A DNA stretch of 64,000 bases from the sequence record OR067838.1, one strand, 5' to 3'. A program made the translations under genes and the position numbers. The DNA comes from Escherichia phage KKP 3954. The notes under the pieces were generated by a model. The model saw only the letters and a program-made list of their open reading frames with translations, had not been told where the DNA came from and ran no database searches. This document shows positions 118 to 44,313 of the stretch, piece by piece; within the stretch, counting starts at the first letter, position 1; each line of letters opens with the position of its first letter.

Positions 118-242
118 GGTTGCTGTTTTAACCAGGTTAACTTCACGTATACACAGTGTCCAAGGTCAGAGCTAAACACTCCACCCAGAACCAGGTGTCC
201 GAATTCCTGGCGAGAGTTAGATAAAGTAATTCCTTTAGCCAT
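114..242 (-). CDS. small hypothetical protein (42 aa)
   Basis: AGGAGA RBS upstream of ATG at 242-240; stop overlaps next ATG (ATGA); could instead be a frame-disrupted capsid N-terminus. Confidence 0.3.
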   Translation of the reverse strand: MAKGITLSNSRQEFGHLVLGGVFSSDLGHCVYVKLTWLKQQP

Positions 243-24019: not shown

Positions 24020-24433
24020 ATGACAAAACAGATTTCGGCTAGTATTATTGCACATTCCATCACTGAAGACGGAAAAGAGATTGTAACTTTCGAACTTGAA
24101 TATCCACGTATTATTCATTCAGAACTGATGACTCACCGCCTGTTCAGTCGTAACGCTGCTTCTAGCCGTGCTATACCTGTTAAAACACTGATCGAAATGG
24201 TGCGAAATCAGCCTGCTCGTCCTTATCGTTTTGGTGCTAACCAACCTGGTATGCAGGACAAAGGTGTTGACCATGATGCTCTTATTGATGCAGGTTATAC
24301 TGCTCAAGAGTGGTGGGATCTTGCCGCGCTTAGCGCAGCACGTTTTGCAGAAGAATTCTCTTTGGCAGGGAATACCACAAACAAGTTGCAAACCGTCTTC
24401 TGGAACCTTTCCAACGAATTAAAACAGTTCTGA
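24020..24433 (+). CDS. ThyX-like protein, N-terminal reading frame
   Basis: THRLFSRNAASSRAIP resembles the ThyX RHRxxSxxxxSxR motif; frame ends at 24433. Confidence 0.45.
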   Translation: MTKQISASIIAHSITEDGKEIVTFELEYPRIIHSELMTHRLFSRNAASSRAIPVKTLIEMVRNQPARPYRFGANQPGMQDKGVDHDALIDAGYTAQEWWDLAALSAARFAEEFSLAGNTTNKLQTVFWNLSNELKQF

Positions 24434-24501: not shown

Positions 24502-25020
24502 TTGGCTAAAGAGATGCACAAAGAGTATGAAGAATCTACACCAGAAGTGCTGAAACCAGGGCAATGGCACACACCTTATGTAGACCATTTCTATGATAAT
24601 ATTGGCACAGAAGGTGACGATCATTTTGTTTTTGGTGGATACTACGTTCAAGATGAATCTGGAGAAGTTGTTGTGCTTACTTTGGAAGAAGCTAAAGCTA
24701 TTTCAGCTTCGTGTTGTGCACAGGTTAGCTATCGTCGTTTGAATGCAACTAAAGATAAAGCTTTAGATATTTATGGTCGTTTGCTAACTGGGCGCAAGGT
24801 TCATGCTTCTCCATTTGAACATCAAGCCACCCCAATGCAAGAAACATGCGAACAATACGGAGAGAACTGTTTTGAAGATTTGTTTATCAATGCTCCTTGG
24901 GATTTTAACTCTTGGGAACCAGGTATTACCCATGTAGATCGTAATGGTAAGTTTTGGTCTGGCAATTTCAAAGGTTGGATTCAACATCGTCAACTTTTAA
25001 CAAATCATACTAAATGGTGA
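24502..25020 (+). CDS. ThyX-like protein, C-terminal reading frame
   Basis: Frame open from 24334, overlapping upstream frame by about 100 nt; ENFWWLRDDKEADPTIEAL and HASPFEHQ are ThyX-like. Confidence 0.45.
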   Translation: MAKEMHKEYEESTPEVLKPGQWHTPYVDHFYDNIGTEGDDHFVFGGYYVQDESGEVVVLTLEEAKAISASCCAQVSYRRLNATKDKALDIYGRLLTGRKVHASPFEHQATPMQETCEQYGENCFEDLFINAPWDFNSWEPGITHVDRNGKFWSGNFKGWIQHRQLLTNHTKW

Positions 25021-25796: not shown

Positions 25797-28037
25797 TTGA
25801 TTCGTTTTGTAACTAAATCTAATGGTAAGACAGAGGAGTTTAACCCAGAAAAACTTCGCAAGTGGTCTGAATTTGCAGCAGGTAAACTAAACTGGTCTGA
25901 AATTGAATTAGAAGCTGTGAAGCGGTGTTATGACGGTGTGTCTACACGTGATCTGCATAAAGCAATGATTGCAGCGTGTATTGACAAGAAAACACAAGCT
26001 TACAGTGATATGGCAGGAAGACTTCTTCTAGGTATGATTTACAAACAGGCTCATGGGGGATACCACAGTATCCCTTCACTGAATACCTTTTATCATGATA
26101 TGGTAGAACGTGGACACTGGGCTAAAATGGATTATACTGATGAAGAGATCAAAGAAATCGGTAAGATTGTAAAGCATAATAAAAATCTAACTTATGGTTA
26201 TTCTGTTTTACGTCAGATGGTAGATAAATATCTTATTCGAGATGCAGTAAACGATGTGGTGCATGAGTCTCCACAGTTTCTTTTCATTGGTATCGCAATG
26301 AAGGTTATGGAGATCCAACCAAAAGAACGCCGTATAGAAGATATTAAAAAACTTTATACTTATGTTAGCGATCTTAAGATTAATCTGCCATCGCCGTATC
26401 TGACAACTCTACGAACTCCAATCAAAGGAAGTGCGTCTTGTTGTTTATTCCGTGCAGATGATACGGCAGAGTCTTTAGCCATTGCTAATTACTTAGCTCA
26501 TGAGTATACATTGAATAACGCAGGTATTGGTGTTAATCTTCAAACTCGTGCCACAGGTCAAGGTGTTAAGAATAATCGTATTATTCACGGTGGTCTTCTT
26601 CCGTATCTGAAATGGATGGAAGATAGTGTTGGAGCTTCAAAGCAAGCAAGCCGTGGAGGTAGTGCTACAGTTACCTTTACCATACTTGAACCAGACTTCG
26701 ACGATCTGATTCGACTGAAGAATCCAACAACACCTATAGATAAACGAGTGGATAAACTAGATTATTCTATTGTTGTTAACCGTTCGTTCTTGCGTCGAGC
26801 AGCAAAAAACGAAGACTGGATGTTAGTTAGTTGTGATGATGCTCCTGAACTTTATGAAGCTTTATATAAAAGTGAAGAAGAGTTTGATGCAGTTTATGAC
26901 AAAGTAAGTCGTCGTCGCATTAAGAAAAAATTTGTTAAGGCTCGTGATCTTCTGACAGAGATTATTGTTCAACGTGCAGAAACAGGACGTATTTACATGT
27001 TCTTTGCTGACAACGTTAACAACCATACACCTTTCTTGGATACGGTGTATCAATCAAACCTGTGTCAAGAGATCTTCTTGCCAACTAAAGCTTTCCACAG
27101 TATGCCGGATCTCTTTACTGGTGAGAATACAGAAGATCAAGAATTGGCTTTATGCTTCTTATCTTCTATTGTTGCTGGTCGTGTATTACCTGAAGAATAT
27201 GAGGATGTTGCATACTACACTGTATTGACAATTGACAACGTTATTGAAACAATGGATTATCCATTTAAACATAACGAAATAACTGCTAAAGCACGTAGAT
27301 CTATTGGTGTAGGTATTACAAACTTAGCGCATTACTTGGCAAGTAATTTTGTAAATTATTCAGATGCTTATGCTAAAAAATTAATGCATGAACTTGCAGA
27401 ACGTCATTACTTTTGGTTGGCAAAAGCCTCTCTGCGTCTGGCTAAGGAAAAAGGTAATGCGGAATGGATCGATAAGACAAAATGGCCTCAAGGTTGGCTA
27501 CCAATTGACACCTATGCTAAAACAGTAGATAGTATCGGTAATTTTGATCTTAAAATGGACTGGGAAGGCTTACGTGCTGAAATCATTGAACAAGGTGGTA
27601 TCCGTAACAGTGTATTGGCTGCTATTGCACCTAATGAGTCCAGCAGTTTGGTAAGCAATACTACTAACTCTCTGTATCCTGTTCGTGATACCATTATGTA
27701 TAAACAAAGTCAGAAAGGTAGTGTATTATTTATTGTTCCAGACTACGAAAAACTGAAAATGTTCTACCAATCTGCCTGGGATACTCCGGCTAAAGACCTT
27801 GCAGAAATGTATGGTATCTTTACCAAGTTTACTGACCAAGGAATTTCTTGTGATTCTTGGCTAGATTATTCTAAATTGGTAGGTGGACGTTTATCCGTGA
27901 AAGCTGAGATGCAGTTTATTTTGAATTTTGCTAGACTGGGTGGCAAATCATTGTATTACCTTAATAGTAGAACAAAATCAGCAGACTCTTTAGCACAAGA
28001 AGATTCTGATGGTGGTTGTGAAGCTTGCAAGATGTGA
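25797..28037 (+). CDS. nrdA: ribonucleotide reductase class Ia alpha subunit
   Basis: 746 aa; TTG start after GGAGGAG; N-terminal ATP-cone VTKSNGKTEEFNPEKL; active-site SNLCQEI; C-terminal CEACKM. Confidence 0.85.
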   Translation: MIRFVTKSNGKTEEFNPEKLRKWSEFAAGKLNWSEIELEAVKRCYDGVSTRDLHKAMIAACIDKKTQAYSDMAGRLLLGMIYKQAHGGYHSIPSLNTFYHDMVERGHWAKMDYTDEEIKEIGKIVKHNKNLTYGYSVLRQMVDKYLIRDAVNDVVHESPQFLFIGIAMKVMEIQPKERRIEDIKKLYTYVSDLKINLPSPYLTTLRTPIKGSASCCLFRADDTAESLAIANYLAHEYTLNNAGIGVNLQTRATGQGVKNNRIIHGGLLPYLKWMEDSVGASKQASRGGSATVTFTILEPDFDDLIRLKNPTTPIDKRVDKLDYSIVVNRSFLRRAAKNEDWMLVSCDDAPELYEALYKSEEEFDAVYDKVSRRRIKKKFVKARDLLTEIIVQRAETGRIYMFFADNVNNHTPFLDTVYQSNLCQEIFLPTKAFHSMPDLFTGENTEDQELALCFLSSIVAGRVLPEEYEDVAYYTVLTIDNVIETMDYPFKHNEITAKARRSIGVGITNLAHYLASNFVNYSDAYAKKLMHELAERHYFWLAKASLRLAKEKGNAEWIDKTKWPQGWLPIDTYAKTVDSIGNFDLKMDWEGLRAEIIEQGGIRNSVLAAIAPNESSSLVSNTTNSLYPVRDTIMYKQSQKGSVLFIVPDYEKLKMFYQSAWDTPAKDLAEMYGIFTKFTDQGISCDSWLDYSKLVGGRLSVKAEMQFILNFARLGGKSLYYLNSRTKSADSLAQEDSDGGCEACKM

Positions 28038-28045
28038 TGAAACTA

Positions 28046-28067
28046 GGGGCTTCGGCCCCTTTTTATT
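28046..28067 (+). terminator. terminator hairpin GGGGC-UUCG-GCCCC plus U-tract
   Basis: Perfect 5-bp GC stem with UUCG tetraloop then TTTTTATT, right after nrdA stop. Confidence 0.55.
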
Positions 28068-28081: not shown

Positions 28082-29170
28082 ATGGCAGCAATTAATTTAC
28101 ACAATGAAGTTTACAAAACAGGAAAATATCCAGTATTTTTAGGGGAACAATTAGGGATCTTTGATTCTGTTAACGTAACTTATCCAGAGATGCACAAACT
28201 CTACAAACTTCAAAAAGCACAAGATTGGGATGAGAATGAAGTCAATCTGGATCAGACACGTAAAGATTTCGTAGCTTGTTCTAAAAACAACTATGATGTT
28301 ATGATTAAAAACTTATCGTTCCAATGGGAAAATGATTCTCTTGCAAAATCAATCATCACTTTGTTCTCTCCATTCTTGAGTAACAATGAAGCCTGTGCTA
28401 TGATGATGAAGCAGAGTGAAATGGAAGTTCTCCATGCGTTAACGTATTCTGAAATAATCCGTCAATGTACTCCAGATCCAATCGAAGTCATCAATCAGAT
28501 TATGATTAATGATAAAATTTTCAATCGTATGGGTATCATTGCTGATATCATGGGTCAGTTGGAAGAAGCTGGTCATAAGTATGCTCTAGGATTGATTGAA
28601 GCTAACGATGAACTTCGACTGCTGATTCTTAAAGGGATGGTAGCCCTGATTGGATTAGAAGGTATTCAGTTTATATCTTCCTTCTCTGCTACTTTTGCTA
28701 TGGCAGAACAACAACTGTTTGTTGGGGCTTGTAAACTGATCCAGAAAATTATGCTAGATGAAATCTTGCATGTTAAGATGGATTATGCTGTAATTGATGC
28801 ATTGATGCATGACCCAATTTGGCGTAAAATTTACGAAGACAATATTGAAGAGTTGACTTTGATCCTCGACACTGTTGTTGAACAAGAGGAACAGTGGTGT
28901 GACTACCTGTTTAGTGAAGGTCGTTTTATTGTAGGTCTTAACGCCGAATTGTCTAAACAGTGGGTTTATTTCAATGCTGCTCCTATTTATCGTCGATTGA
29001 AAATGAAAGCCAAGTTTAAAGCACCTAAACATAGCCCTTTAGCTTGGATGGAAAAATGGTTGAATCCTGATTTGATTCAGTCAGCAGCCCAAGAGATTCA
29101 GTTAACTAACTACAAATTGAATTCAGCTAACAAAGATCTCTCTGATGATGAGGAGCTTGACTTCGAATGA
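28082..29170 (+). CDS. nrdB: ribonucleotide reductase class Ia beta subunit
   Basis: 362 aa directly downstream of nrdA; ferritin-like helical protein with conserved Glu/His spacing. Confidence 0.75.
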   Translation: MAAINLHNEVYKTGKYPVFLGEQLGIFDSVNVTYPEMHKLYKLQKAQDWDENEVNLDQTRKDFVACSKNNYDVMIKNLSFQWENDSLAKSIITLFSPFLSNNEACAMMMKQSEMEVLHALTYSEIIRQCTPDPIEVINQIMINDKIFNRMGIIADIMGQLEEAGHKYALGLIEANDELRLLILKGMVALIGLEGIQFISSFSATFAMAEQQLFVGACKLIQKIMLDEILHVKMDYAVIDALMHDPIWRKIYEDNIEELTLILDTVVEQEEQWCDYLFSEGRFIVGLNAELSKQWVYFNAAPIYRRLKMKAKFKAPKHSPLAWMEKWLNPDLIQSAAQEIQLTNYKLNSANKDLSDDEELDFE

Positions 29171-29682: not shown

Positions 29683-29998
29683 TATCGAATGGCGTATGTT
29701 ACAGGGTGCACCATATGATAAATGGAAAGAAATATTTGGAGACGACCCACAAGTTGAAGACCAGTTCGATGGGGACTTTAATTGGTTTCTCTGCGAAGGT
29801 TTGGGCTTGGAAAACATTTCCCCGTGGTACGATGCAGATCCTGAAGATTGTGTCTTCGGTGTCAAGCTGTGTAGCGGTTGTGGTGCTTGTGCCATAGACC
29901 TCACAAGCTTAAATAAAAAAGCAAATGAGATCTATTTTGAACTACTTAATAAGTATAATATTGAAACTGAAACATTAGTGTCACAAAACGTCTGGTAA
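29672..29998 (+). CDS. hypothetical protein
   Basis: 108 aa; GGAGGAG RBS. Confidence 0.5.
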   Translation: MGIDIEWRMLQGAPYDKWKEIFGDDPQVEDQFDGDFNWFLCEGLGLENISPWYDADPEDCVFGVKLCSGCGACAIDLTSLNKKANEIYFELLNKYNIETETLVSQNVW

Positions 29999-30007
29999 GG
30001 AGAACTG

Positions 30008-30493
30008 ATGCGCTATCTGGTAACAGGTGGTCTTGGTTTTATTGGGAGCGCCGTGGTGCGCTCTCTTTGTCAAGATCCTAATAACGAAGTTTTTATCATT
30101 GATAAAATGGGTTATGCAGCAGACATTGAGAATGTAGGTGATATCACTCACGCTAAACTAAGCATGACAGATTTGGCAAACGAAGCCCAGGTCAAAAGTT
30201 TAGTAGTAGAGTGCAATCCCGATTTCATCATTCACTTAGCGGCAGAGAGCCATGTGGATAATTCTATCAAGAATCCACGAGCTTTCATCGACTCCAATAT
30301 TATTGGTACATACAATTTATTGGAAGCTGCAAGGCTCCTCCCAAAGAATAAACTGAAGATGTTCATACACGTCTCCACAGACGAAGTGTATACGGTGATA
30401 TGGCAGACTCTGGCGTTCCCTTTACCGAAGAGACAGCTTATGCCCCTTCAAGCCCGTACAGTGCGTCTAAGGCAGCATCTGACCATCTTGTGA
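30008..30493 (+). CDS. rmlB: dTDP-glucose 4,6-dehydratase, N-terminal part (frame-disrupted)
   Basis: VTGGLGFIGS Rossmann motif; HVSTDEVY then frame loss. Confidence 0.65.
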   Translation: MRYLVTGGLGFIGSAVVRSLCQDPNNEVFIIDKMGYAADIENVGDITHAKLSMTDLANEAQVKSLVVECNPDFIIHLAAESHVDNSIKNPRAFIDSNIIGTYNLLEAARLLPKNKLKMFIHVSTDEVYTVIWQTLAFPLPKRQLMPLQARTVRLRQHLTIL

Positions 30494-31002
30494 AAGCTTG
30501 GCACCGTACCTACGATTTACCTGTTGTGATAACCAACTGCTCCAATAACTTTGGACCCTATCAACATCCAGAAAAGCTGATCCCAAAAATCATCACAAGT
30601 ATCTTGACGAATAAAGAGATTCCGGTGTATGGTAAAGGCGATCAGGTGCGAGACTGGCTTTTTGTTGAGGATCATGCGCGAGCTATTCTTCAAGTGGCAA
30701 CAGGTGGAGAACCAGGTAAAACGTATAATGTGGGAACACGTAATCCCAAAACCAATATGGAGATCATCTATATGGTTTGTGACTACATGGATGCTGTACA
30801 TCCAGAAGCAGGAACCTACCCTTCTTCCAACTTGATAACTTTTGTTGAAGATCGTAAAGGGCATGACTTGCGTTATGAAATCAATCCTTCTAAGATAGAG
30901 TTTGAACTGGGTTGGAGTGCAAACTCTACATTTGAACAAGATCTCTACTCAACGATTGAATGGTACTTAAACAACCCTCAATGGTGGAGTGGGAAGATTT
31001 AA
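30400..31002 (+). CDS. rmlB: dTDP-glucose 4,6-dehydratase, C-terminal part in second frame
   Basis: [32 protein letters not shown] (catalytic YxxxK region) open from about 30388; about 2 nt extra at GTGTATACGG. Confidence 0.65.
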
Positions 31003-31010
31003 GGAGGGCT

Positions 31011-31889
31011 ATGAAAGGTATTATTTTGGCGGGAGGAAGTGGAACCCGCCTTCATCCGGTAACACGCAGTGTGAGCAAGCAATTGCTCCCTGTGTATGAC
31101 AAACCCATGATCTACTACCCTTTATCGGTATTGATGTTGGCTGACATTAAGGATATCTTAATCATTACCACACCAGGCGATCAGGAAGACTTTGAGTATC
31201 TTCTCGGAGATGGGTCTATGTTTGGGATAAAACTCACTTACGCAATCCAATCCGAGCCACGAGGTCTTGCGGACGCTTTCATCATCGGTAAAGATTTTAT
31301 CGGAGAAGACTCTGTTGCTCTTATTTTAGGTGACAACCTATTCTTCGGACAAAGCTTTGGTAAACTACTGATTAACGCCAGTGAGATGGTAGATGTTTGT
31401 GGCGGAGCTTGTATCTTCGGGTATTTGGTGAAAGATCCTGAACGATTCGGTGTGGTTGAATTTGGGAGTAATCGTCAAGCTATTTCTATTGAAGAGAAAC
31501 CTGAAAATCCTAAATCAGATTATGCTGTCACAGGTTTGTATTTCTATGATAACTCTGTTGTTCAACGTGCATTAGAAGTAACCCCTTCCGCGCGTGGAGA
31601 ACTGGAGATCACAGATATCAATCGCAGCTACCTCGAAGACAGGAAGTTACAAGTGGAAGTTCTCGGACGAGGATTTACTTGGCTTGACACAGGAACACAC
31701 GCCAGTCTGATGGAAGCTGGTCAATTCGTGCAGACTATTGAGAACCGTCAAGGATTGAAGATTGCGTGCCTGGAAGAAATTGCTTTCAAAAAAGGGTGGA
31801 TTTCTTTAGAGACTTTGTTGTATCATGGAAACTCACTGAAGAAAACAGAATACGGGCAATACCTACTCAAATTAGCGGAGAGAAAATGA
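31011..31889 (+). CDS. rmlA: glucose-1-phosphate thymidylyltransferase
   Basis: Track ORF 30960..31889; AGGAGGG RBS supports start [14 protein letters not shown]. Confidence 0.8.
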
Positions 31890-32452
31890 AAGTAGAAAAA
31901 ACAAAAATTGAAGGTGCGGTAATTATCAAACCAGACGTTTATAAAGATGATCGTGGTTTCTTTTTAGAAACATATAATGAACAAAAATACGAAGATATCA
32001 TTGGTAGACAAACTTTCGTTCAAGATAACATGTCTAAATCAAACTTCGGTGTTTTGCGAGGAATGCACTTTCAAACAAATAATCCGCAAGGTAAGCTTGT
32101 TCGTTGTGTAAGTGGGGAAGTATTGGATTTCGCTGTAGACCTACGTAAAGATAGTCCTACTTACGGTGCTTGGGACGGTGTTGTTCTTCGTGCACGACAC
32201 CATACACAGTTCTGGCTTCCACCTGGTTTGGCACATGGTTTTATAGTGCTGAGTATGGATGCTATCTTCGAATACAAATGCACAACTCCATACGACCCTT
32301 CCAGCGAACAAAGTTTACGTTGGGATGATCCTGATATAGGGATTGATTGGGGCTTCGATATGATTTTTGACGAAGATTTTAAACCTATCTTATCAACAAA
32401 AGATGCAATGGCTAAGTCTTTTCAACAGCTACGTAGCGAGGGTGTATGCTAA
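31886..32452 (+). CDS. rmlC: dTDP-4-dehydrorhamnose 3,5-epimerase
   Basis: Track ORF 31766..32452; start [10 protein letters not shown] overlaps rmlA stop (ATGA); cupin-type motifs DDRGFF and RGMHFQ. Confidence 0.75.
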
Positions 32453-33288
32453 CATATCTGGTATTGGGTGGTAATGGACAACTGGGACAAGCTTTACGTA
32501 AAGTGGCTCCTTCAAATGTGTCTTTAATTTATCCTAAAGAACGTGTAGATATTACAAATTTTGAAGCTGTGCGAAACGCTATTGTTGAAGATTATGTAGA
32601 TGGTGTTATTAATTGCGCTGCTTATACGGCTGTAGATAAAGCAGAACATGATTTTGCTACTGCTTTGGCTGTTAATGCCTATGGCCCTGCAAATACTGCG
32701 GCAGTGTGCAGCAAACTTAAAATTGATTTTGTGCATATTTCTACAGACTATATTTTTAATTATTCTCATCCTATTTTTGAAGATACTACACCTAACCCAA
32801 TAAACAATTATGGGTATACGAAAGAACTTGGTGAAAAAATGGTGCGAGGAGTTAACCCAAATGCATATATTATTCGAACAGCCTCGGTATATAGCGAATT
32901 TGGAAATAACTTTCTAAAAACCATGTTGTCTCGCTATAATGATGGACAACGTGATTTTATTATTGTTGCTGATCAGTTCTCTTGTCCAACATATGCCCCA
33001 GATTTAGCAGAAGCTATTTTTGAAGTATTAAAAACAGGTTGGTCAAGATCTGTAAAGACTTACCATTTTGCAGGAAGCCATCTTATTTCTTGGGCGGAGT
33101 TTGCGGAAAAGATCTTGACACAGATGCCAGAACCTGTTAAGATATCGGCGGTATCAGCTTCAACCTATAATGCTCCAGCAGCACGTCCGGTGAAGTCACA
33201 ATTAGTAACCAGTCACTATCTTACAAAATCAGATTTAAATAAAGGTATTGAACGGTCTTTAGCAGTATTACTTAATAAGGAGAGGTAA
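32446..33288 (+). CDS. rmlD: dTDP-4-dehydrorhamnose reductase
   Basis: 280 aa; N-terminal LGGNGQLG Rossmann motif; completes B-A-C-D order. Confidence 0.75.
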   Translation: MLTYLVLGGNGQLGQALRKVAPSNVSLIYPKERVDITNFEAVRNAIVEDYVDGVINCAAYTAVDKAEHDFATALAVNAYGPANTAAVCSKLKIDFVHISTDYIFNYSHPIFEDTTPNPINNYGYTKELGEKMVRGVNPNAYIIRTASVYSEFGNNFLKTMLSRYNDGQRDFIIVADQFSCPTYAPDLAEAIFEVLKTGWSRSVKTYHFAGSHLISWAEFAEKILTQMPEPVKISAVSASTYNAPAARPVKSQLVTSHYLTKSDLNKGIERSLAVLLNKER

Positions 33289-33548
33289 TGGAATTTGTAA
33301 TTTTTGGTAAACCTAACTGTCAATTTTGCGAAATGTCAAAACAACTATTAACCATGCGCAATAAACAGTTTGAATATTTAAGTCTTGACCAAGACTACGA
33401 TTTAGAATCAATGACTAAAACAGTTGTTGATCTTACCGGAGTTCCTCCACGCACATTTCCACAAATTCTGTCTGAAGTGAACGGGGAGGTAACATACGTA
33501 GGCGGTTTTACCGAACTGCGTGATCTCATGGCTCAAATTGCGGAGTAA
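33288..33548 (+). CDS. glutaredoxin / NrdH-like thioredoxin (T4 NrdC-like)
   Basis: 86 aa; CQFC active site near N-terminus; ATGA overlap with rmlD. Confidence 0.7.
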   Translation: MEFVIFGKPNCQFCEMSKQLLTMRNKQFEYLSLDQDYDLESMTKTVVDLTGVPPRTFPQILSEVNGEVTYVGGFTELRDLMAQIAE

Positions 33549-33553
33549 CAATT

Positions 33554-33703
33554 ATGAAAAGTAAACAGAAACGTAAGATCTTTTCTCGTGCTTTGGCAAA
33601 TGAGCTGAAGTCCAACATAAAGAAAACGAAACCAAAACGTGAAACTTCTCCAGAACACCTGTTGTTTAACGAGTTGGATCACGGAGTAGGAGACGACGAA
33701 TAG
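33554..33703 (+). CDS. small basic hypothetical protein (49 aa)
   Basis: Not in track; weak RBS; MKSKQKRKIFSR. Confidence 0.25.
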   Translation: MKSKQKRKIFSRALANELKSNIKKTKPKRETSPEHLLFNELDHGVGDDE

Positions 33704-33710
33704 GAAGTAA

Positions 33711-34211
33711 ATGGCTAAAGTAGTAGATGAGTTTGATATGCTACGAGTCGATGAAGGACTGAAGCTTACTGTTTATCAAGACCATCTTGGTTATTGGACA
33801 GTCGGCATAGGACACCTTCTGACTAAAATAAAAGATAAAGCAAAGGCTATTCAAATCTTAGATAATCTCCTTGGTCGTAAGACCAATGGAGTTATCACAG
33901 AAAAAGAAGCCCGTCAAATCTTTGCTGACGATGTTGCAAAAGTGAAGAGAGACATAAAAAACAGTGCTATCTTATCACCAATCTATGATAAGGTGAGTGA
34001 TACTCGTAAATTGGGAATAATCAACATGGTTTTCCAGTTGGGGTTAAAAGGTGCTGAAGGGTTTCAAAATAGCTTGACTTTAATCAGCAATGCATATTAT
34101 ACTCAAGCAGGTAAAAACATGCGTAAAAGCCGATGGTATAGCCAGACGCCAAACCGTGCTGAACGAGTAATTAAAGTTCTGACTTCTGGAACTTTAGATG
34201 CTTACAACTAA
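33711..34211 (+). CDS. T4-type lysozyme (endolysin)
   Basis: 166 aa; EGLKLTVYQDHLGYWTVGIGHLLTK (catalytic Glu/Asp region), NGVITE, INMVFQLG, SRWYSQTPNRAERVI all T4 lysozyme-like. Confidence 0.9.
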   Translation: MAKVVDEFDMLRVDEGLKLTVYQDHLGYWTVGIGHLLTKIKDKAKAIQILDNLLGRKTNGVITEKEARQIFADDVAKVKRDIKNSAILSPIYDKVSDTRKLGIINMVFQLGLKGAEGFQNSLTLISNAYYTQAGKNMRKSRWYSQTPNRAERVIKVLTSGTLDAYN

Positions 34212-34215
34212 TAAA

Positions 34216-34229
34216 GGGGCTTCGGCCCC
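34216..34229 (+). terminator. GGGGC-UUCG-GCCCC hairpin (weak U-tract)
   Basis: Same 14-nt hairpin as at 28046 and 46308, right after lysozyme stop. Confidence 0.4.
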
Positions 34230-34248
34230 TTCTAAAAGGAGTGCTACT

Positions 34249-35007
34249 ATGGGAAATAAAACCGCAGCTAAAACACAACGGCAGAAACTGGCTAATTCAG
34301 CAAAGATTGAAAGCCGTTATGCAGCAAAAGCGGTAGGTAATGACGATTACCGTTTAGATGAATTTATGCCTGAAGGGGACCAAAATAAGATTGTTCAAAG
34401 CATGATTTGGAATGATCTGACTGTTGTAAATGCTCCGGCAGGGACTGGTAAAACCTCTGTTGCTTTATGGAAAGCTTTGCAGATGCTTCGTTCAGGAGAC
34501 TTCCGTAAACTACTTTTTATCAAGAACCCTACTGAAGTCGGAGATGATCAGATTGGTTTCTTGTCTGGGGATAAAACAGATAAACTAGCAGCACACTATG
34601 AATCTACAAAACGTATTTTCCAGCAATTCATGACAGCCAACAAATTGGAAAACGATATTGGATCAGGTAAGATCGAATTGAATATTCCTAACTATTTGTT
34701 GGGAGCTACCCTGGATAATACAATTGTCATTATTGACGAAGCACAACTTATGTCAACAGAAACACTTAAACTTCTTATTGAACGTGCAGGTATTAATACG
34801 CATGTTATTGTATTAGGCGATGTTCGCCAGACATATGCAATTAAAAAACGTAGCAATGGTCTGCATCAAATTTTGGAACTTTTATATCCAGAAAATGAAG
34901 AAGGTGTTCGTGAGCCAATTGTAGATTTTATTGGATATGTTGAACTGACAACGGACGATAATAAACGTGGACGTTTGTCTAAACTGATTACTGAAGTGTT
35001 TATTTAA
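34249..35007 (+). CDS. phoH: PhoH-like ATPase
   Basis: Track ORF 34198..35007; AAGGAG RBS supports start MGNKTAAK; Walker A NAPAGTGKTSVAL; Walker B VIIDEAQL. Confidence 0.8.
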   Translation: MGNKTAAKTQRQKLANSAKIESRYAAKAVGNDDYRLDEFMPEGDQNKIVQSMIWNDLTVVNAPAGTGKTSVALWKALQMLRSGDFRKLLFIKNPTEVGDDQIGFLSGDKTDKLAAHYESTKRIFQQFMTANKLENDIGSGKIELNIPNYLLGATLDNTIVIIDEAQLMSTETLKLLIERAGINTHVIVLGDVRQTYAIKKRSNGLHQILELLYPENEEGVREPIVDFIGYVELTTDDNKRGRLSKLITEVFI

Positions 35008-35039
35008 TAACGTGGCAGGGAAGCCATTTATAAGGAGGA

Positions 35040-35543
35040 TTGATGGGTGTAGCAACAATAGCTATCGGAAGAAGCGGTATAGATGAGTGCTATCAAACGG
35101 GACTCGTAAAACCTAACGAATTTCGTCAAATTTGTGTAAACCATATTGAAAAAGAGATTGCTCTTACTTTAGAGAATATGACCCTCCGAGATAAACTGGA
35201 AATGTTTAAATGTTGGTGTCTAGGAGAAGATTGGCTTTTAAACCATTTTCAAGAACTTTCTGATAGTAAAGAAAGCTTGTTTGATTGTATAATAGGAATA
35301 GCTGGCTCCGATCCTAGCCTTCTGCACATAACAGAAGAAGAGGCGAAGTTACTGTTCTTAAGTAATTTGTTTAATAAGAAAGCACTGCTTGTTCGTGATT
35401 GCAGTGATCTTCTTAATAACCCGCTCGCAACGTCTGATCAAATTTTTGTTGACAAAGAGACACTACGTGCGATAGAATACATCTGCAAATATGTGAATGG
35501 CGGGAAAGCGGTTCTTAAAACATTAACAGAGGAGGAAGAATAG
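35040..35543 (+). CDS. hypothetical protein
   Basis: 167 aa; AGGAGG RBS. Confidence 0.55.
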   Translation: MMGVATIAIGRSGIDECYQTGLVKPNEFRQICVNHIEKEIALTLENMTLRDKLEMFKCWCLGEDWLLNHFQELSDSKESLFDCIIGIAGSDPSLLHITEEEAKLLFLSNLFNKKALLVRDCSDLLNNPLATSDQIFVDKETLRAIEYICKYVNGGKAVLKTLTEEEE

Positions 35544-36235
35544 TGACGACAATTATTGCAACCAAAAATAAGATTTTGAGTGACGGTAAGGTAACTTTTG
35601 GTGGACGTGTAGATTCTATTAATTTCAAAAAGGTCCGAAAAATTGGAGATTACCTTGTAGGTGGTGCTGGTCGTCTGACCTCCGTGCTTTCTTTCTTTCA
35701 ATGGTTTGAACAAAATCTACAGTGCGAAGCAGCACGTGATGCTGTCCCTGGTTTGATGATTCACTCTGATCCAGATAAAGAAGATGAAGAGTTTATTGCA
35801 CTTGTTGTTCATCCTGACGGACGTATTTTCCTGCACGAAGGTAACAACCCAACACGTGCATATCCGATTGATGAAGAATATTATGCGGTAGGAAGCGGGT
35901 CAGACTTTGCTTTAGCTGCTCTTGATGCAGGGGCAACACCAGAACAGGCTATGGAAGTAGCTAAAAAGCGAGATGCTTTTTCTGGTGGTGAAACATTTGT
36001 TGAAGAACAAGATGAGATTATTGAATTAACAGACGATGATTTAGAAAACTTCTCCAAAGAAGAATTGATCAATCTTTTGAAATTCGGTAATCCCTACGGT
36101 GAAGAAGAACCTCGTAACGTGGCAGGTAACGAGGCGGATACTGAAGAAAAATCTGTTGCAGAAAACAACTTGACTTCTAAATCTGAAAATATTAATCTCG
36201 TAAATGTGGCGGATTTCGAAGGAACCGCTATTTAA
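35543..36235 (+). CDS. HslV-like (proteasome beta-type, Ntn-hydrolase) peptidase
   Basis: 230 aa; GTG start giving M-TTIIA (N-terminal Thr nucleophile); GGAGRLTS and AVGSGSDFALAALDAG resemble HslV; acidic C-terminal extension. Confidence 0.6.
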   Translation: MTTIIATKNKILSDGKVTFGGRVDSINFKKVRKIGDYLVGGAGRLTSVLSFFQWFEQNLQCEAARDAVPGLMIHSDPDKEDEEFIALVVHPDGRIFLHEGNNPTRAYPIDEEYYAVGSGSDFALAALDAGATPEQAMEVAKKRDAFSGGETFVEEQDEIIELTDDDLENFSKEELINLLKFGNPYGEEEPRNVAGNEADTEEKSVAENNLTSKSENINLVNVADFEGTAI

Positions 36236-36241
36236 CAAACT

Positions 36242-36255
36242 GCCCCTTCGGGGGC
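36242..36255 (+). terminator. GCCCC-UUCG-GGGGC hairpin
   Basis: Stem-inverted variant of the recurrent UUCG hairpin, right after the HslV-like gene. Confidence 0.4.
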
Positions 36256-36280
36256 ATTTCTTAAACATAGGAGATTAATA

Positions 36281-36716
36281 ATGTTACAAGTTCCTGCTAA
36301 GTTTGTTGAAGGCGCTATCCACTCTTACCGTCAAACATGTAAGAGGGCAAGAAACTGTTTAGATGGTCTGGTGGCAAAAACCTATACTGTTGAAAAAGAA
36401 AAAACGTTGGTTTGGCAAAGATGTTTACGAAGTTAATATTTTTGGTGAACATAAACTAAACCACGATACTCCTGAAAACATGTTAGAAATATTTCTAAGA
36501 GATGACAAAATATCTCCTATGGATTACCAACTTTTAAAATTTTATGATTCTTCTTTGGCTATTGATAAGTTTGTTGAAGATATTCTGTCTAGAAAAACAG
36601 ATAAAAACACTTATCCTCTAGAGGCTGATCAAATAGGATTATTAAACGAGATTTCATCCTTTAAAGAGTTGGATAATATTACAAAAGAGGAGATTTTAGA
36701 TGGCATTAGATTATGA
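36281..36716 (+). CDS. hypothetical protein, frame-disrupted at a poly(A) run
   Basis: Strong RBS TAGGAGATTAATA-ATG at 36281 (frame open to about 36436); track ORF 36363..36716 in another frame; frames overlap across AAAAAGAAAAAA. Confidence 0.45.
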
Positions 36717-37209
36717 TCGCCCAACGAGCGATTATTATCCGACACCGCAAAAAGCAATCAACAGTTTGTTTAGTGTTATAGATTTCAAAAATCTAAAGGA
36801 AGAAGGTTGGGTTTTTGCAGAACCTTGTAGAGGTGAAGCTGAAGCGATTTATCGCCATTTTCCTGAAGGTTCAGAATATTGTGAACTTGAAGAAGGTAAA
36901 GATTATTTTAGTCATGAATGGGAAAATCGTCCCGACATTATAATCACAAATCCTCCATTCAAGTTAGCAATGGAGTTCTTGGAAAAGAGCTTAAAAGAGG
37001 CGGATGTTTGTATTTATCTTCTTCGGTTGGGCTTCTTGGAGTCAAAGAAACGACGAGAGTTCCATCAAAAGAATCCACCAACAAACCTTATAGTCCTTTC
37101 AGAACGGCCTTCGTTTGTTGCAGGTGGAACAGATAAGACAGCATACGCTTGGTATGTATACGACCCAAAGAATCGTTTGGGCCTCTCTCAACCATTTTAT
37201 TTTGTTTAA
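36700..37209 (+). CDS. DNA N6-adenine methyltransferase (small phage Dam-like)
   Basis: 169 aa; catalytic IIITNPPF (NPPF motif IV); AGAGGAG RBS. Confidence 0.55.
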   Translation: MALDYDRPTSDYYPTPQKAINSLFSVIDFKNLKEEGWVFAEPCRGEAEAIYRHFPEGSEYCELEEGKDYFSHEWENRPDIIITNPPFKLAMEFLEKSLKEADVCIYLLRLGFLESKKRREFHQKNPPTNLIVLSERPSFVAGGTDKTAYAWYVYDPKNRLGLSQPFYFV

Positions 37210-37221
37210 GGAGTGTGAACT

Positions 37222-37458
37222 ATGGGTAAACTAATTATGACAGTGGCTATTGATTTTGATGAAGTAGATGAAAGCCTCAACCTTTCACTTTCTACTGATG
37301 TAGAGGGTGAAATGGATAATATTGAAGCAGCTACTGCTCTTTTCTTCAAAAAGGCCATTGAAGTTTATGCCGAACATGCTGCAAATCAGGCAGTAGATTA
37401 CGGTGGTATCGTGCGAGCTTTGGTTCACTCTACCGAGGACAATGACTGGGAAGACTAA
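37222..37458 (+). CDS. hypothetical acidic protein
   Basis: 78 aa. Confidence 0.5.
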   Translation: MGKLIMTVAIDFDEVDESLNLSLSTDVEGEMDNIEAATALFFKKAIEVYAEHAANQAVDYGGIVRALVHSTEDNDWED

Positions 37459-37661
37459 TGGCTTACAATTATTACTGCATTTATGCACATGAAAAGAAGA
37501 AAGGTGACACTGGGACTAACGTTTATGCGGAGTCTGAATCTCATGCAAAAGAGATTGGTGCTATCCTTTTATCACGCTGGACTGGAAATAATTACAGTGC
37601 AGAAGATATGTTTGCAGAAGTGGATTCTAGTATCCAAGAAGGCAACATAACAACTACGTGA
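37458..37661 (+). CDS. hypothetical protein
   Basis: 67 aa; ATGA overlap. Confidence 0.45.
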   Translation: MAYNYYCIYAHEKKKGDTGTNVYAESESHAKEIGAILLSRWTGNNYSAEDMFAEVDSSIQEGNITTT

Positions 37662-37707
37662 TATACTTATACTCCCTTCTCGGAGGGAGTATTTTTAAGG
37701 AGGGATT

Positions 37708-37902
37708 ATGCAGAGCGGAGAAGAACTTTTAGAGAAACAATTCTCAACGCGTCAACAAGCTTTAAGTTATATGGTTTTTCTAAGCAATCTTGATGTGAAT
37801 GAGATACTTTTACGGCGCGAAGGTAATTTCTGGAGCGTTAAATACCATGCAACAAGATCTGTAATCTACCTAGAAGAGGCGGAATTCTCTTTGGTAGAAT
37901 GA
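37708..37902 (+). CDS. hypothetical protein
   Basis: 64 aa; AGGAGGG RBS; preceded by hairpin plus T-run. Confidence 0.45.
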   Translation: MQSGEELLEKQFSTRQQALSYMVFLSNLDVNEILLRREGNFWSVKYHATRSVIYLEEAEFSLVE

Positions 37903-37916
37903 TCCGAGGAGTAGTT

Positions 37917-38489
37917 ATGCGTTCAACTTTCACTGGCAAAATAAACGCTGGTTTAATTTTTACCGCAGTAAGCATTCTTAGCAAAAAGTTTAAAGTTGTT
38001 AACTTACCTGTGTGTGTCGATTTCGATCATGTCTTTGATCCTTCGAACCCCACTCGTTGCATAGTAAGGAGTAATGTTGAAAACCCAACAGAAAATCTTT
38101 TTTATGTAACAAAACCATCTCAAAGCATACTTAACCAGGTTGAGGCGAAATTGATACCTAACGGTAAATATTACTCCTTTTTACCTTGCAAGTCGGTTGA
38201 AGTAGAGAATAGCAATACTTTCGCTAACAACTTGTCTGTATTCGTTTTCTTTGTTTCGCACGAAGATGAAACAGATGAAATGGTAGCAACAGTGAGATCA
38301 CTTTATGACTCTTTAGGGGTTGTTTATAGACAACAAGTGTGCGAAAATAATAAAGCTTGTGTAGATTTCATTATCAACGGTATTTGTGTTTGTAGAGTAG
38401 AATCTTTTTGGCTGCACGATACATATGTGACTGTAGCAGAGGTTATATCTGAACCAAAATTTAGTCATGCGGTTTCGTTAATAATTTGA
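37917..38489 (+). CDS. hypothetical protein
   Basis: Track ORF 37899..38489; GAGGAG RBS supports start MRSTFTGK. Confidence 0.5.
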   Translation: MRSTFTGKINAGLIFTAVSILSKKFKVVNLPVCVDFDHVFDPSNPTRCIVRSNVENPTENLFYVTKPSQSILNQVEAKLIPNGKYYSFLPCKSVEVENSNTFANNLSVFVFFVSHEDETDEMVATVRSLYDSLGVVYRQQVCENNKACVDFIINGICVCRVESFWLHDTYVTVAEVISEPKFSHAVSLII

Positions 38490-38499
38490 GGAGGAAGGA

Positions 38500-38829
38500 A
38501 TGGAAATTACTACAGAACAAGCCCTTATCGACGAGGGTCGTAAAATCTTAGAAAAGCATTTAGGGGAGATTCATAAAACTCCTGGCTATTTGGGTTGGAG
38601 AATTGTTGAAGCTGTAGATTTCCTTCCTCGTAACAGTAAAAGCGTCGAAATGCGATCTCTTTTCTTATTAGTAAAGGTGGATGGGGATACACCTTTTAAA
38701 GATGCCGCAGAGCATATTGAAAAAGTTGAAGAGAAAGCTTATGCAGAATTTGCCGATCTTGTTTTAGAACAAAAGATTGAAGGAAAGGTGAATATTTTTA
38801 TTTTCTTAGATTTTGAGGAGGATAAGTGA
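38500..38829 (+). CDS. hypothetical protein
   Basis: 109 aa; GGAGGAAGG RBS. Confidence 0.55.
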   Translation: MEITTEQALIDEGRKILEKHLGEIHKTPGYLGWRIVEAVDFLPRNSKSVEMRSLFLLVKVDGDTPFKDAAEHIEKVEEKAYAEFADLVLEQKIEGKVNIFIFLDFEEDK

Positions 38830-39877: not shown

Positions 39878-39884
39878 GGTGTTT

Positions 39885-42296: not shown

Positions 42297-43240
42297 ATGG
42301 TGTTAATTGGTAGCCGTGCATTGCAAATTCATGCTATGGACATGGGAAAAGACTTGTATCGCCCTTGTGTAGATTTAGATTACCTGTGTATACAGAACAA
42401 GAGTGGGAAGAATTATCAAAAATGTTCTCTCAAGAGGAGTTTGTTGAACTTGTAGAACGTAAAGGAAACAAAGGCCATGTCAAAATGATAGCTGGTGCAC
42501 ATTTGGAATACGATATTGCTTCTCAAGGAGATAGCACAGAAGCTTTGATTAGTTATTGTGAAGATTCTGATGATGTTCGTCGAACTTACGCTGGACATGT
42601 TGTTGCTCCTTTAGATGTGCTCTACCTTCTTAAAATGAGTCATCGTTTTAAAAAGGATAGTCCTCACTTCTTTAAAACTATGAAAGATATTCATTTCATG
42701 CGATCACTAGGTGCAAAGATCCCAGAAAATCTTAAGAGTATTTATGAGTTGCGTGAGAAAGAAACATACACTTACTCTCATCCAAACTTAAACGTGAGAA
42801 GTAAAGACTTCTTTAAAGGTGATGAGGTTCCGTATGTTTATGATCATGACTCTATTCATGAAGCAATCGCAGTAATGGATGCTCCAGCATATAAATCTTA
42901 TATGAAAGATGGAAGTGAAGTTATGACCAGCAAAGAAAAGTTTTTTGCTCAACCAAAACATGTGCGCCTGTTAGGTGTTTATGAAGAAGCGTGCGTTTTG
43001 GCTTTGGAACGTTCACAAATTCCTTTCGGTGAAGAGATCGGAGGTCCAACCCCTAAGCAAAGTTTTATGATGGCTTTATCTAAAGTTTGCACATCTATCA
43101 CTAGTGGTTGGTTTAGGGAATATGCTTGGGAGAACTTTTATATTGTTACTAAACTATATGAAAACATGGGTGAAAACGACTATGTTGAACGTTTTAAAGC
43201 TAATCAACATGTAGTTAAGCCTTTTGAAGGAGGTTATTAA
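42297..43240 (+). CDS. hypothetical protein, frame-disrupted near its 5' end
   Basis: Strong RBS AGAGGAGAAATATT-ATG at 42297 (frame 0, about 52 codons); main 291-aa ORF 42365..43240 in another frame, open from 42314. Confidence 0.45.
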
Positions 43241-43637
43241 TATGTGTGGATATCTTTCAGAAAGTTATTTCAAAGTGACGCATGAGGATTTAGAAAAAGC
43301 ACGATTGAAATTGACAGCTATTATTGAATACTCTAATACTGTTGATCACAGATTAAAGACTACTAAAGTATCTGTTCCTTGTTGGTTAGGTTTACGGCAT
43401 AAAACAATGTCTCAACATGATCATGTTGTTCGAGAGATGCATGGTTGGTGTTGGTTTCACGATGTGGCTTTGCATTTTGGTTATATTACAGAAGAAGAAC
43501 ATAGATTCTGTGAACTAACGTATCGTATTCCAACCCTTCACGATCTAGATTTGTGGAAGAAAGCAAACGAGATTTTTCTTACAGAAAGTGATTGGCGTAA
43601 AGTTATGGCTTGTCTTGAATGGAGGGGTAATGAGTAA
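43224..43637 (+). CDS. hypothetical protein
   Basis: 137 aa; GGAGG RBS. Confidence 0.5.
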   Translation: MKEVINMCGYLSESYFKVTHEDLEKARLKLTAIIEYSNTVDHRLKTTKVSVPCWLGLRHKTMSQHDHVVREMHGWCWFHDVALHFGYITEEEHRFCELTYRIPTLHDLDLWKKANEIFLTESDWRKVMACLEWRGNE

Positions 43638-44313
43638 AACAGTTTTGTCTATGTTTGACGGATCTGGGATCATGGTGTTACGTTATGCCGAAGCAGGTCA
43701 CAAGTGTTTTTGTGTAAACGCTGATGAAGGGGACCACGGTAAATACGAGGTTAGGATGGAGCACCCAAACATAACCTATGTGAATGCTTGGATAGATTCT
43801 ACATTCAACCCTGAAGATCATGGAATACCTAAACCCGATATTATTTTTGGATTTCCACCTTGCACTATGTTAGCAGGTAGTGGTAGCAAACACGAACGCA
43901 GCACAGAGGAATTAGATGAAGCTTTAGCTAATATTCGTGTAGTGGAAGCTTTGGGTAACAAATACAATGTTCCTTGGATGATTGAGAACCCAGTAGGTAA
44001 ACTTTCAACCTTATGGCGTAAACCCGATTTTTACTTTGATCCTTATGAGTATGGTGGGTATTTGTTTGAAGAGGAAGGAAGCTTTCATCCTAAAATGCCT
44101 ACCCGTGATGGGTATACAAAGAAAACTTGTATTTGGCACGGGAATGGTTTTGTTCAACCAGTGAAGAAACCAGTAGATCATATAGGCTGTTTCTGGGGTT
44201 GGAAAAGCTTAGGCGGAGCTAGTGCAAAAACAAAACAACTTAGATCACTAACCGCACGTGGTTTTGCTCGTGCAGTGTTTTTGTCTAACAATCTTCTAGA
44301 TAAGGAGAAATAA
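43630..44313 (+). CDS. DNA (cytosine-5)-methyltransferase-like protein
   Basis: Track ORF 43588..44313; GGAGGGG RBS supports start MSKTVL; motif I-like SMFDGSG, motif IV FGFPPC, motif VI ENP. Confidence 0.55.
   Translation: MSKTVLSMFDGSGIMVLRYAEAGHKCFCVNADEGDHGKYEVRMEHPNITYVNAWIDSTFNPEDHGIPKPDIIFGFPPCTMLAGSGSKHERSTEELDEALANIRVVEALGNKYNVPWMIENPVGKLSTLWRKPDFYFDPYEYGGYLFEEEGSFHPKMPTRDGYTKKTCIWHGNGFVQPVKKPVDHIGCFWGWKSLGGASAKTKQLRSLTARGFARAVFLSNNLLDKEK

Follow-up and report, generated by a model that had tools for sequence, protein, structure and literature searches.

A known dTDP-L-rhamnose operon in a phapecoctavirus and the probable consensus error that splits its rmlB gene

Four rhamnose genes between nrdAB and glutaredoxin

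The DNA analysed here, referred to as the window, is a 64,000-nucleotide stretch of Escherichia phage KKP 3954 (record OR067838.1), a Phapecoctavirus (phAPEC8-like). Judging from the domains of their predicted products, the genes at positions 30008-33288 make up the canonical four-enzyme dTDP-L-rhamnose pathway (RmlB, RmlA, RmlC, RmlD). An earlier note had recognised a complete pathway between nrdAB and glutaredoxin; Pfam bears this out for all six genes, glutaredoxin and lysozyme included.

25797-28037: nrdA, upstream of rml
28045..28060, + strand: strong terminator-like hairpin after nrdA (consensus scan only)
28082-29170: nrdB, upstream of rml
30008..31002, + strand: rmlB, dTDP-glucose 4,6-dehydratase; as given, ORFs 30008-30493 and 30400-31002
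31011..31889, + strand: rmlA, glucose-1-phosphate thymidylyltransferase; Pfam NTP_transferase (PF00483) 2e-73
31886..32452, + strand: rmlC, dTDP-4-dehydrorhamnose 3,5-epimerase; Pfam dTDP_sugar_isom (PF00908) 1.1e-66
32446..33288, + strand: rmlD, dTDP-4-dehydrorhamnose reductase; Pfam RmlD_sub_bind (PF04321) 1.8e-72
33288..33548, + strand: glutaredoxin (CQFC), Pfam 1.8e-9; probably in the same transcription unit as rml, context only
33711-34211: phage lysozyme (Pfam)

The two ORFs of rmlB correspond to the N-half (30008-30493; Pfam GDP_Man_Dehyd 1.8e-32, profile 1-133) and the C-half (30400-31002; 1.4e-39, profile 139-327) of the same extended-SDR dehydratase. Deletion of 2 nt restores a clean ORF of 330 aa, and rmlB carries no further damage. 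The restored protein matches Salmonella RmlB (1G1A, E = 2e-111) and possesses the motifs GGLGFIGS (GxxGxxG), STDEVYG (catalytic T-D-E) and YSASK (YxxxK).

A Shine-Dalgarno sequence, AAGGAGGG, precedes rmlA at 31001-31008. RmlA has the GGSGTRL signature and is ~70% identical to bacterial RfbA and 97-99% identical to the phage copies. The stop of rmlA overlaps the start of rmlC (ATGA). RmlC matches 1DZR (4e-56), with its catalytic residues aligned (His of RGxHFQ, Lys of GKLVRC, Tyr of YK and Asp of KDA), while RmlD matches 3SC6 (1e-43) and has both STDY and YGYTK (YxxxK). The pN/pS ratios (rmlA 0.15, rmlC 0.03, rmlD 0.10; 0.03-0.18 over the operon) indicate purifying selection. GC content is 43% in rmlBA and 37-39% in rmlCD.

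The next strong terminator-like hairpin on the + strand, by the same consensus scan, lies at 36241-36256. On this basis rml probably belongs to a single transcription unit running from nrdB to an HslV-like gene, co-transcribed with nrdB, glutaredoxin and the adjacent genes.

The gene content itself is nothing new. E. coli myoviruses of the phAPEC8-like (Phapecoctavirus) and phi92-like groups are known to carry the operon as a conserved accessory module; its annotation dates back to 2012 and now appears in dozens of phapecoctaviruses. Its puzzling position has already been treated in print, together with the idea of DNA glycosylation (Olsen et al. 2020, PMC7552041). Recent capture from E. coli was rejected as its origin: rmlBA shares 60-80% DNA identity with E. 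coli rfb/rff genes, and rmlCD has no match there.

A two-nucleotide insertion in rmlB

30389..30390, + strand: 2-nt insertion (TA) in rmlB, GTAC to GTATAC; GTGTACGG becomes GTGTATACGG

In the sequence as given, RmlB is not encoded by one uninterrupted frame. The estimate of about 2 extra nt made earlier proved exact: in an alignment with three relatives, which read GTG--TACGG where the window has GTGTATACGG, the excess is TA at 30389-30390. The frame breaks right after the catalytic TDEVY.

The insertion is confined to the window. In 16 aligned relatives rmlB is intact at 993 nt, and TA is absent from 36 of 36 phage records and from all 17 aligned relatives' loci. The exact junction has no match in IMG/VR or in genome and metagenome contig collections, and no recorded protein corresponds to the 161-aa frameshift product. 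A programmed frameshift was rejected: the sequence around GAA GTG TAT ACG lacks a slippery heptamer, a shift of +1 or -2 would be needed, and the protein is single-frame in all relatives.

GTAC sites and homopolymers are anomalous across the window

Every 2-nt insertion of the window falls on a GTAC site of the relatives, all four coding ones included. Besides the one in rmlB, the coding insertions are:

150..151, - strand: 2-nt insertion at a GTAC site; cuts the head-decoration protein short after residue 31
24371..24372, + strand: 2-nt insertion, GGGTACC to GGGAATACC; splits a 332-aa ThyX-like gene into 24020-24433 and 24502-25020
42389..42390, + strand: 2-nt insertion at a GTAC site; splits a DUF7277/DUF7275 gene

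All 17 relatives with coverage read GGGTACC at the second of these sites. In all, 23 of 44 ancestral GTAC sites are changed in the window alone: 17 of the 30 sites common to three relatives (1-2 per other lineage) and 6 of 14 in the region 49-64 kb. Among 4-mers GTAC is the sole outlier, with 48% lost against 3% overall. Of the window-specific indels, GTAC sites account for 8 and homopolymers for 5-6; those away from GTAC are mostly +1 in homopolymers and include +1 frameshifts, for example at 21579 and 36393. Altogether, at least six genes conserved in relatives are frameshifted: those for head decoration, an RNaseH_2-like protein, the ThyX-like protein, RmlB, a 144-aa product and DUF7277.

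Random sequencing noise does not account for all differences of the window: 83% of its specific substitutions are synonymous, and GTAC and homopolymers alone are anomalous. Because of this synonymous share, we read the sequence as a whole as real divergence. Moreover, GTAC is depleted throughout the lineage (O/E 0.21 in the window), and GTAC loss therefore does have a biological component.

A second assembly keeps rmlB intact

The only other carrier of the window's RmlD allele is a pair of contigs from SRA run SRR24296944, L008 and L015, which match the window over 11,412 and 2,074 nt. They differ from it only at GTAC-derived sites and in one A-run, and are 100% identical elsewhere. They encode an intact 330-aa rmlB and intact adjacent genes. 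L015 is of normal length at 30389-30390, and L008 has TGTATACAG, in frame, at 42389-42390. L015 has GTAC changes of its own, which strike conserved or catalytic residues (T101I, E126G, R166H, H264Y); that read set therefore has GTAC-linked errors too. Its flank is also scrambled, from GAAGTG to GGGGTA.

The split of rmlB is thus most likely a sequencing or consensus error at a GTAC site that is probably modified: the insertion occurs in the window only, it is part of a series of GTAC and homopolymer anomalies, and an independent assembly, identical in other respects, lacks it. Long-read assemblies can show consensus errors linked to modification motifs. The TA would be one of many such GTAC- and homopolymer-linked errors, in a pattern that fits long-read base-calling of DNA with modified GTAC cytosines. 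Plus-strand reads would yield GTAT and minus-strand reads ATAC, and their merging would give GTATAC. The earlier note had offered a choice between an inactive pathway and an assembly error; the error is the better reading.

Glycosyltransferases in the relatives

As had been noted, the window holds no recognisable glycosyltransferase (GT), and none is annotated in the window-equivalent part of the closest relative. Four GT genes do occur in that relative, ~75 kb from rml and outside the equivalent stretch; they are seen in relatives only. The clade distributions of GT2 and RmlC match (64 records each at 95% or above; ~62 versus 65 in phi92-likes). Since the relatives' four GT genes co-occur with rml across clades, a phage-directed use of dTDP-rhamnose, as first proposed from the window's genes, is plausible. 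Its extension to DNA bases fares worse, given restriction-sensitive relatives and the lack of an annotated hydroxymethylase. The rml product most likely feeds the four phage-encoded GTs, which would decorate a putative acceptor.

We consider the following reading probable as a whole: the operon is the known, conserved rhamnose module, rmlB is intact in the phage, TA is a consensus error, and the product probably feeds the four GTs.

Alternative explanations

The acceptor could be a protein or an envelope glycan. The GTs would then glycosylate virion proteins, as in Che8-type phages, or act with dTDP-rhamnose to remodel host LPS, ECA or capsule, masking receptors or excluding superinfection during infection. 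GT3 and GT4 belong to the GT-B, group-1-like enzymes, which typically assemble glycans. The conserved core is rmlCD, the branch in which an intermediate of host ECA synthesis is drawn off towards rhamnose. Beyond its own clade, GT2 has phage homologues only among 254 Mycobacterium phage GTs (26-29% identity), and F1-cluster phages of the Che8 type have been linked to capsid glycosylation (PMC11256854). Against this, the homology of GT2 is limited to the nucleotide-sugar-binding half, and neither flippase, polymerase or ligase genes nor a lipid-carrier GT are annotated in the window or in the closest relative's stretches. We see somewhat less than an even chance for such use. It refines the acceptor in the preferred reading and does not contradict it.

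Alternatively, the frameshift could be real, with rmlB a fresh pseudogene in a lineage where some targeted mechanism removes GTAC sites. Phage polymerase could fill in the ends of a G^TAC restriction cut and phage ligase join them blunt; filling in a 5'-TA overhang does yield exactly GTATAC. Or the C5-methyltransferase of the phage could deaminate its target to GTAT or ATAC. Genes for an ATP-dependent ligase and a C5-MTase-like protein are present in the phage, and its lineage avoids GTAC. Of 7 coding substitutions that destroy GTAC, 5 are synonymous, a share that real selection against the motif could also produce. The genes broken at GTAC are plausibly dispensable; the pseudogene would be tolerated since host RmlB/RffG supply dTDP-4-keto-6-deoxyglucose. 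This reading nevertheless demands a truncated structural gene (head decoration), and the loss of 4 of ~40 sites would bring little escape from restriction. It leaves unexplained the +1 homopolymer frameshifts, the GAATAC variant at 24371 and the scrambled flank in L015, and it gives no account of two otherwise identical assemblies that differ only at GTAC sites. We regard it as unlikely.

Even a genuine loss of rmlB would matter little and would not necessarily inactivate the pathway, because phapecoctaviruses with rmlC-rmlD only are common and E. coli encodes RmlA/B-type enzymes. About a quarter of phapecoctaviruses (e.g. ESCO37, L032, L033, L037) naturally lack rmlB in this way, and 5418 of 5426 complete E. 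coli genomes have rfbA/rfbB- or rffG-type genes. The conserved core is rmlCD, with rmlBA as an optional add-on.

Genome-wide, T4-like glycosylation of hydroxymethylated DNA bases with dTDP-rhamnose from the operon (Olsen et al. 2020) is disfavoured and, in our estimate, very improbable. The hypothesis is in print (PMC7552041), the operon lies inside a nucleotide-metabolism block, and one of the four phage GTs, GT2, weakly resembles DNA glycosyltransferases: the relative's protein scores E = 1.3e-3 against Pfam TAGT (19 bits, under the family cut-off of 27.5) and 4e-6 over 40 residues against phrog_842. However, PMC8594841 describes relatives as "exceptionally susceptible" to restriction-modification, and many of their records are ordinary complete genomes. 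No pyrimidine hydroxymethylase was found in the window or among the annotations of the closest relative (1-50,000 and 58,000-124,000 of 151,671 nt): a ThyX-like gene is present, with no ThyA-type hydroxymethylase annotated or detected. A literature search found no report of rhamnosylated DNA.

Modification restricted to GTAC is a separate matter. The GTAC-specific anomalies suggest that the phage DNA is modified at this motif, and one gene of the window is a possible source:

43630..44313, + strand: candidate C5-cytosine DNA methyltransferase, 227 aa; FDGSG, PPC and ENP motifs; phrog_757 1.8e-84

This candidate has no Pfam match and weakly resembles residues 3-80 of M.HaeIII (E = 0.08). Another ORF, 1380-1859 (-), is labelled 'DNA methyltransferase' in PHROGs; Pfam identifies it as an XkdF-type protease and it was not counted. 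A literature search on GTAC methylation in phapecoctaviruses returned nothing relevant.

Finally, a bulky GTAC-specific cytosine adduct, in which the four GTs extend the methyl group of the C5-MTase with a rhamnose-containing glycan, would scramble base-calling at GTAC, so that the apparent frameshift in rmlB would be an effect of the rml pathway itself. It would be the first motif-specific DNA glycosylation dependent on a dTDP-sugar; we give it very little credence. No TET/JBP or other oxidase was found adjoining the methyltransferase: precomputed Pfam results for ~20 kb around it include no Tet_JBP, and the 217-aa ORF coupled to it has no Pfam match and no HxD motif.

Two points are of use all the same. 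With TA as a consensus error, the notion of an inactive pathway should not spread, as the same error class breaks at least five further genes of the window. In addition, the presence of rml tracks a four-gene GT cluster, which makes the question of rhamnose use concrete.

Comparison with known systems

T4-type and MT-TET(5mYOX)-GT hypermodification (PMC8256090; bioRxiv 2023.12.21.572611) have in common with the phapecoctaviruses a sugar-nucleotide supply, more than one phage GT and a gene resembling C5-MTases. Unlike them, the phapecoctavirus data include no detected hydroxymethylase or TET/JBP domain, and relatives are sensitive to restriction-modification (PMC8594841); the donor would be a dTDP-sugar, a type named in neither of two papers on DNA glycosylation.

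The GTs linked to virion glycosylation in cluster F1 mycobacteriophages of the Che8 type are homologous to GT2 over its residues 26-155. The identity of 26-29% covers the donor-binding region only.

The anomalies of the window resemble long-read errors at modification motifs: they affect one palindromic motif and homopolymers, are of the C to T type on either strand, and are not the same in two assemblies of one strain (the window and the SRR24296944 contigs). In contrast, it is unusual for such an error to be a 2-nt insertion; the merging of GTAT with ATAC that would account for it is our inference.

Bacterial rfb/rml operons (Salmonella 1G1A and 1DZR; gammaproteobacterial RfbA) encode the same four enzymes with the catalytic motifs kept. 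The phage copy, however, sits in the nucleotide-metabolism module of a lytic phage, without linked O-antigen GTs, flippase or polymerase. For its RmlD, the nearer enzymes are 3SC6 and 1VL0, of the Bacillus/Clostridium type, with Salmonella 1KBZ more distant.

The closest counterparts are phAPEC8 (JX561091, phAPEC8_00100-00103) and other members of Phapecoctavirus. Some members have rmlC-rmlD only, and the 2-nt insertion in rmlB sets the window apart; otherwise the four genes, their order and the nrdAB and glutaredoxin flanks agree, at 97-98.5% DNA identity.

The rml operon and its setting

The four rml genes lie where the earlier note had placed them, and their identities are confirmed by Pfam together with structure or protein-sequence matches:

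30008-30493, plus strand: N-terminal half of rmlB, extended-SDR sugar dehydratase (Pfam)
30400-31002, plus strand: C-terminal half of the same protein, same Pfam assignment
31011-31889, plus strand: rmlA, nucleotidyltransferase (Pfam, 2e-73)
31886-32452, plus strand: rmlC, dTDP-sugar epimerase (Pfam, 1.1e-66)
32446-33288, plus strand: rmlD, RmlD family (Pfam, 1.8e-72)

In a search of solved structures, repaired RmlB matches Salmonella RmlB 1G1A (2e-111), RmlC matches 1DZR (4e-56) and RmlD matches 3SC6 (1e-43), all with aligned catalytic motifs; phage RmlA and bacterial RfbA share about 70% identity. The nrdA and nrdB genes are found upstream, and rmlD is followed by a glutaredoxin with a CQFC motif and then by a phage lysozyme (Pfam). 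The operon is not new: the region is 97-98.5% identical to genomes of Phapecoctavirus, among them phAPEC8, ukendt and Ro121c4YLVW, whose annotation has the same four genes at the same place.

Strong terminator-like hairpins occur on the plus strand only at 28045 and 36241, so the rml genes are probably co-transcribed with those for NrdB, glutaredoxin, lysozyme, PhoH and an HslV-like protein. The nearest structures to RmlB and RmlC are Salmonella enzymes, while RmlD (32446-33288) is nearer to Bacillus/Clostridium-type structures (3SC6, 1VL0) than to Salmonella 1KBZ, which suggests a mosaic origin of the operon. Further downstream, a small ORF at 41391-41705 has a Pfam Acb2_Tad1_hairpin match in relatives (anti-CBASS/Thoeris sponge-type fold).

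The rmlB frameshift is most likely not real

Alignment with three relatives bears out the split of rmlB: their GTG--TACGG becomes GTGTATACGG in the window, a gain of exactly 2 nt at 30389-30390, immediately 3' of the catalytic S-T-D-E-V-Y codons. Deleting these nucleotides restores a clean 330-aa RmlB with no further lesion. The insertion appears in none of the 36 phage records covering the stretch and in none of the 17 genomic and metagenomic loci that were aligned; its junction was not found in IMG/VR, genome or metagenome collections. The split is most probably spurious.

The only other source found for the exact RmlD protein of the window was a Logan contig from SRA run SRR24296944. This contig, L008, corresponds to window 31877-43291 and matches it exactly over 11.4 kb except at two points: the +1 A at 36393 is missing, and TGTATACAG stands in place of TGTGTATACAG. 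Both affected genes are intact in L008. A second contig of the run, L015 (window 29831-31906), carries an intact 330-aa rmlB and reads GACGGGGTATACGG at the insertion site, with the length seen in relatives; among the sequences compared, the insertion is unique to the window, in favour of the assembly error that the earlier note had offered as an alternative. L015 differs from the window at GTAC sites only, and all five GTAC sites kept by the window rmlB read ATAC or GTAT there. Translated, these changes give T101I, E126G (the catalytic Glu), R166H and H264Y, which are errors rather than adaptations. L015 starts directly 3' of a GTAC site, and an A-rich homopolymer stretch lies at its junction with L008. 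As the two assemblies of this strain disagree solely at homopolymers and at a single palindromic motif, a technical cause is indicated.

At least six genes that are whole in relatives are frameshifted in the window, among them a structural gene and one of RNaseH_2-like type:

1-242, minus strand: head-decoration protein gene; 2 nt at GTAC, 150-151, with a stop after about 42 codons
20953-21913: RNaseH_2/DNA-polymerase-exonuclease-like gene, 319 aa in relatives; +1 C at 21579 in a C-run that reads CCC in 16 relatives
24020-25020, plus strand: ThyX-like gene, 332 aa (weak Pfam Thy1 match in relatives; intact in 17 of 17 relatives with coverage); 2 nt at GGGTACC, 24371-24372
30008-31002, plus strand: rmlB; 2 nt at 30389-30390
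36281-36716: 144-aa gene; +1 A at 36393; intact in L008
42297-43240, plus strand: DUF7277/DUF7275 gene; 2 nt at 42389; intact in L008

By coordinate mapping, +1 insertions at 52311, 57712 and 62131 also fall inside small hypothetical genes of relatives; two of the three lie at GTAC or next to it, the other in a C-run.

An anomaly at GTAC sites

We aligned the whole window to its closest relative, NC_052654.1, and polarised the changes with three relatives. Each of the four 2-nt insertions that hit coding sequence falls at a GTAC site of the closest relative. Among 30 GTAC sites common to the three relatives, 17 are changed in the window alone, against one or two lost per other lineage; another 6 of 14 are changed at 49-64 kb. 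Altogether, 23 of 44 ancestral sites are changed only in the window, chiefly to ATAC or GTAT (examples: 3495, 4824, 12656, 30365, 44386, 48323, 48359, 50923 and 58165). Substitution removed 48% of GTAC sites versus 3% for all 4-mers and 14% for the runner-up, making GTAC the sole outlier. The changes are mainly G to A at position 1 or C to T at position 4, one and the same change viewed from opposite strands.

Window-specific indels occur at GTAC (150, 10131, 10315, 24371, 30389, 42389, 52311 and 62131) or as +1 homopolymer insertions (21579, 24014, 36393, 42230 and 57712); the only others are an in-frame +3 and a -1 in a tRNA spacer. Of 340 lineage-specific substitutions, 83% are synonymous, which marks the window as real, diverged phage sequence whose problems are localised. 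No 4-mer palindrome is more depleted in it than GTAC (36 observed against 171 expected; O/E 0.21), and this lineage-wide depletion fits restriction avoidance and 5mC decay alike. Between divergent gene blocks, at 10100-10320, relatives carry an (A)GTAC repeat cluster (about 10 sites in 260 nt) that is heavily changed in the window and might serve as a regulatory or origin-like element.

We consider it likely that modified GTAC cytosines are the technical cause. Such a cytosine would be miscalled as T on each read strand, giving GTAT from one and ATAC from the other, and the two would sometimes be merged into GTATAC during consensus building. The error signature suggests GTAC modification in the DNA of this isolate. 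The modification may come from the product of the 227-aa ORF at 43630-44313, which has the C5-MTase motifs FDGSG, PPC and ENP, or equally well from a host methylase.

An ATGA overlap couples translation of this minimal C5-MTase-like gene to that of a 217-aa protein which could be assigned to no family (43630-44966). The MTase sequence is extremely common, occurring in 769 blocks of the collection. The ORF at 1380-1859 (minus strand) is labelled 'DNA methyltransferase' by PHROGs but has a Pfam XkdF-type phage serine protease domain, so the label in relatives is probably a mis-annotation.

An optional half of the module: rmlB and rmlA

RmlC is found in 64 phage records at 95% identity or more, RmlB in only 47 at 90% or more. 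Phage ESCO37 lacks rmlA and rmlB (PMC10269720); in it and in 3 of 10 environmental contigs (L032, L033 and L037), rmlC-rmlD immediately follows the upstream 108-aa gene. The rmlBA pair has 43% GC versus 37-39% for rmlCD, contains seven of the region's ancestral GTAC sites and is under weaker purifying selection (pN/pS 0.18 for rmlB and 0.15 for rmlA, versus 0.03 for rmlC and 0.10 for rmlD). It is the optional, higher-GC half of the module.

Genes of the rfbA/rfbB or rffG type are present in 5418 of 5426 complete E. coli genomes, and RffH/RffG supply the synthesis of enterobacterial common antigen with the same dTDP-4-keto-6-deoxyglucose; a phage without rmlB would therefore still be able to make dTDP-rhamnose. 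The suspected inactivity of the pathway in this isolate is not upheld: even a real frameshift would be of limited consequence, given these host genes and the rmlC-rmlD-only relatives.

Glycosyltransferases and the use of rhamnose

The window contains no glycosyltransferase (GT), as first noticed. Beyond it, the closest relative has four consecutive GT genes at positions 13401-16545 of its own record, adjoining primase/helicase and DNA polymerase genes. GT3 and GT4 are GT-B, group-1-like paralogues. The distributions of GT2 and RmlC match, with 64 records each at 95% or more, and about 62 versus 65 among phi92-like phages; no other finding speaks as strongly for joint action of the rml and GT modules. 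We count as mildly new only this GT-linked architecture, with its rmlCD core and optional rmlBA, and the GTAC-linked error signature.

Phage-directed use of rhamnose, as proposed in the earlier note, is thus plausible through the GTs seen in relatives, while DNA bases, one of its suggested acceptors, are unlikely. Hypermodification restricted to GTAC is a remote possibility, but no oxidase for it was found near the MTase. Genome-wide DNA glycosylation is disfavoured. Glycosylation of hydroxymethylated nucleotides was already proposed by Olsen et al. (PMC7552041), and GT2 has only sub-threshold similarity to TET-associated DNA glycosyltransferases; but no hydroxymethylase or TET/JBP enzyme was found in the window and stretches of the closest relative (for TET/JBP, in the MTase neighbourhood), these phages are reported to be exceptionally sensitive to restriction-modification despite their 'putative dTDP glycosylation machinery' (Maffei et al. 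2021, PMC8594841), and the two DNA-glycosylation papers examined do not mention rhamnose or dTDP sugars. Outside its own clade, the phage homologues of GT2 are mycobacteriophage GTs, whose type has been connected with glycosylation of the capsid (PMC11256854).
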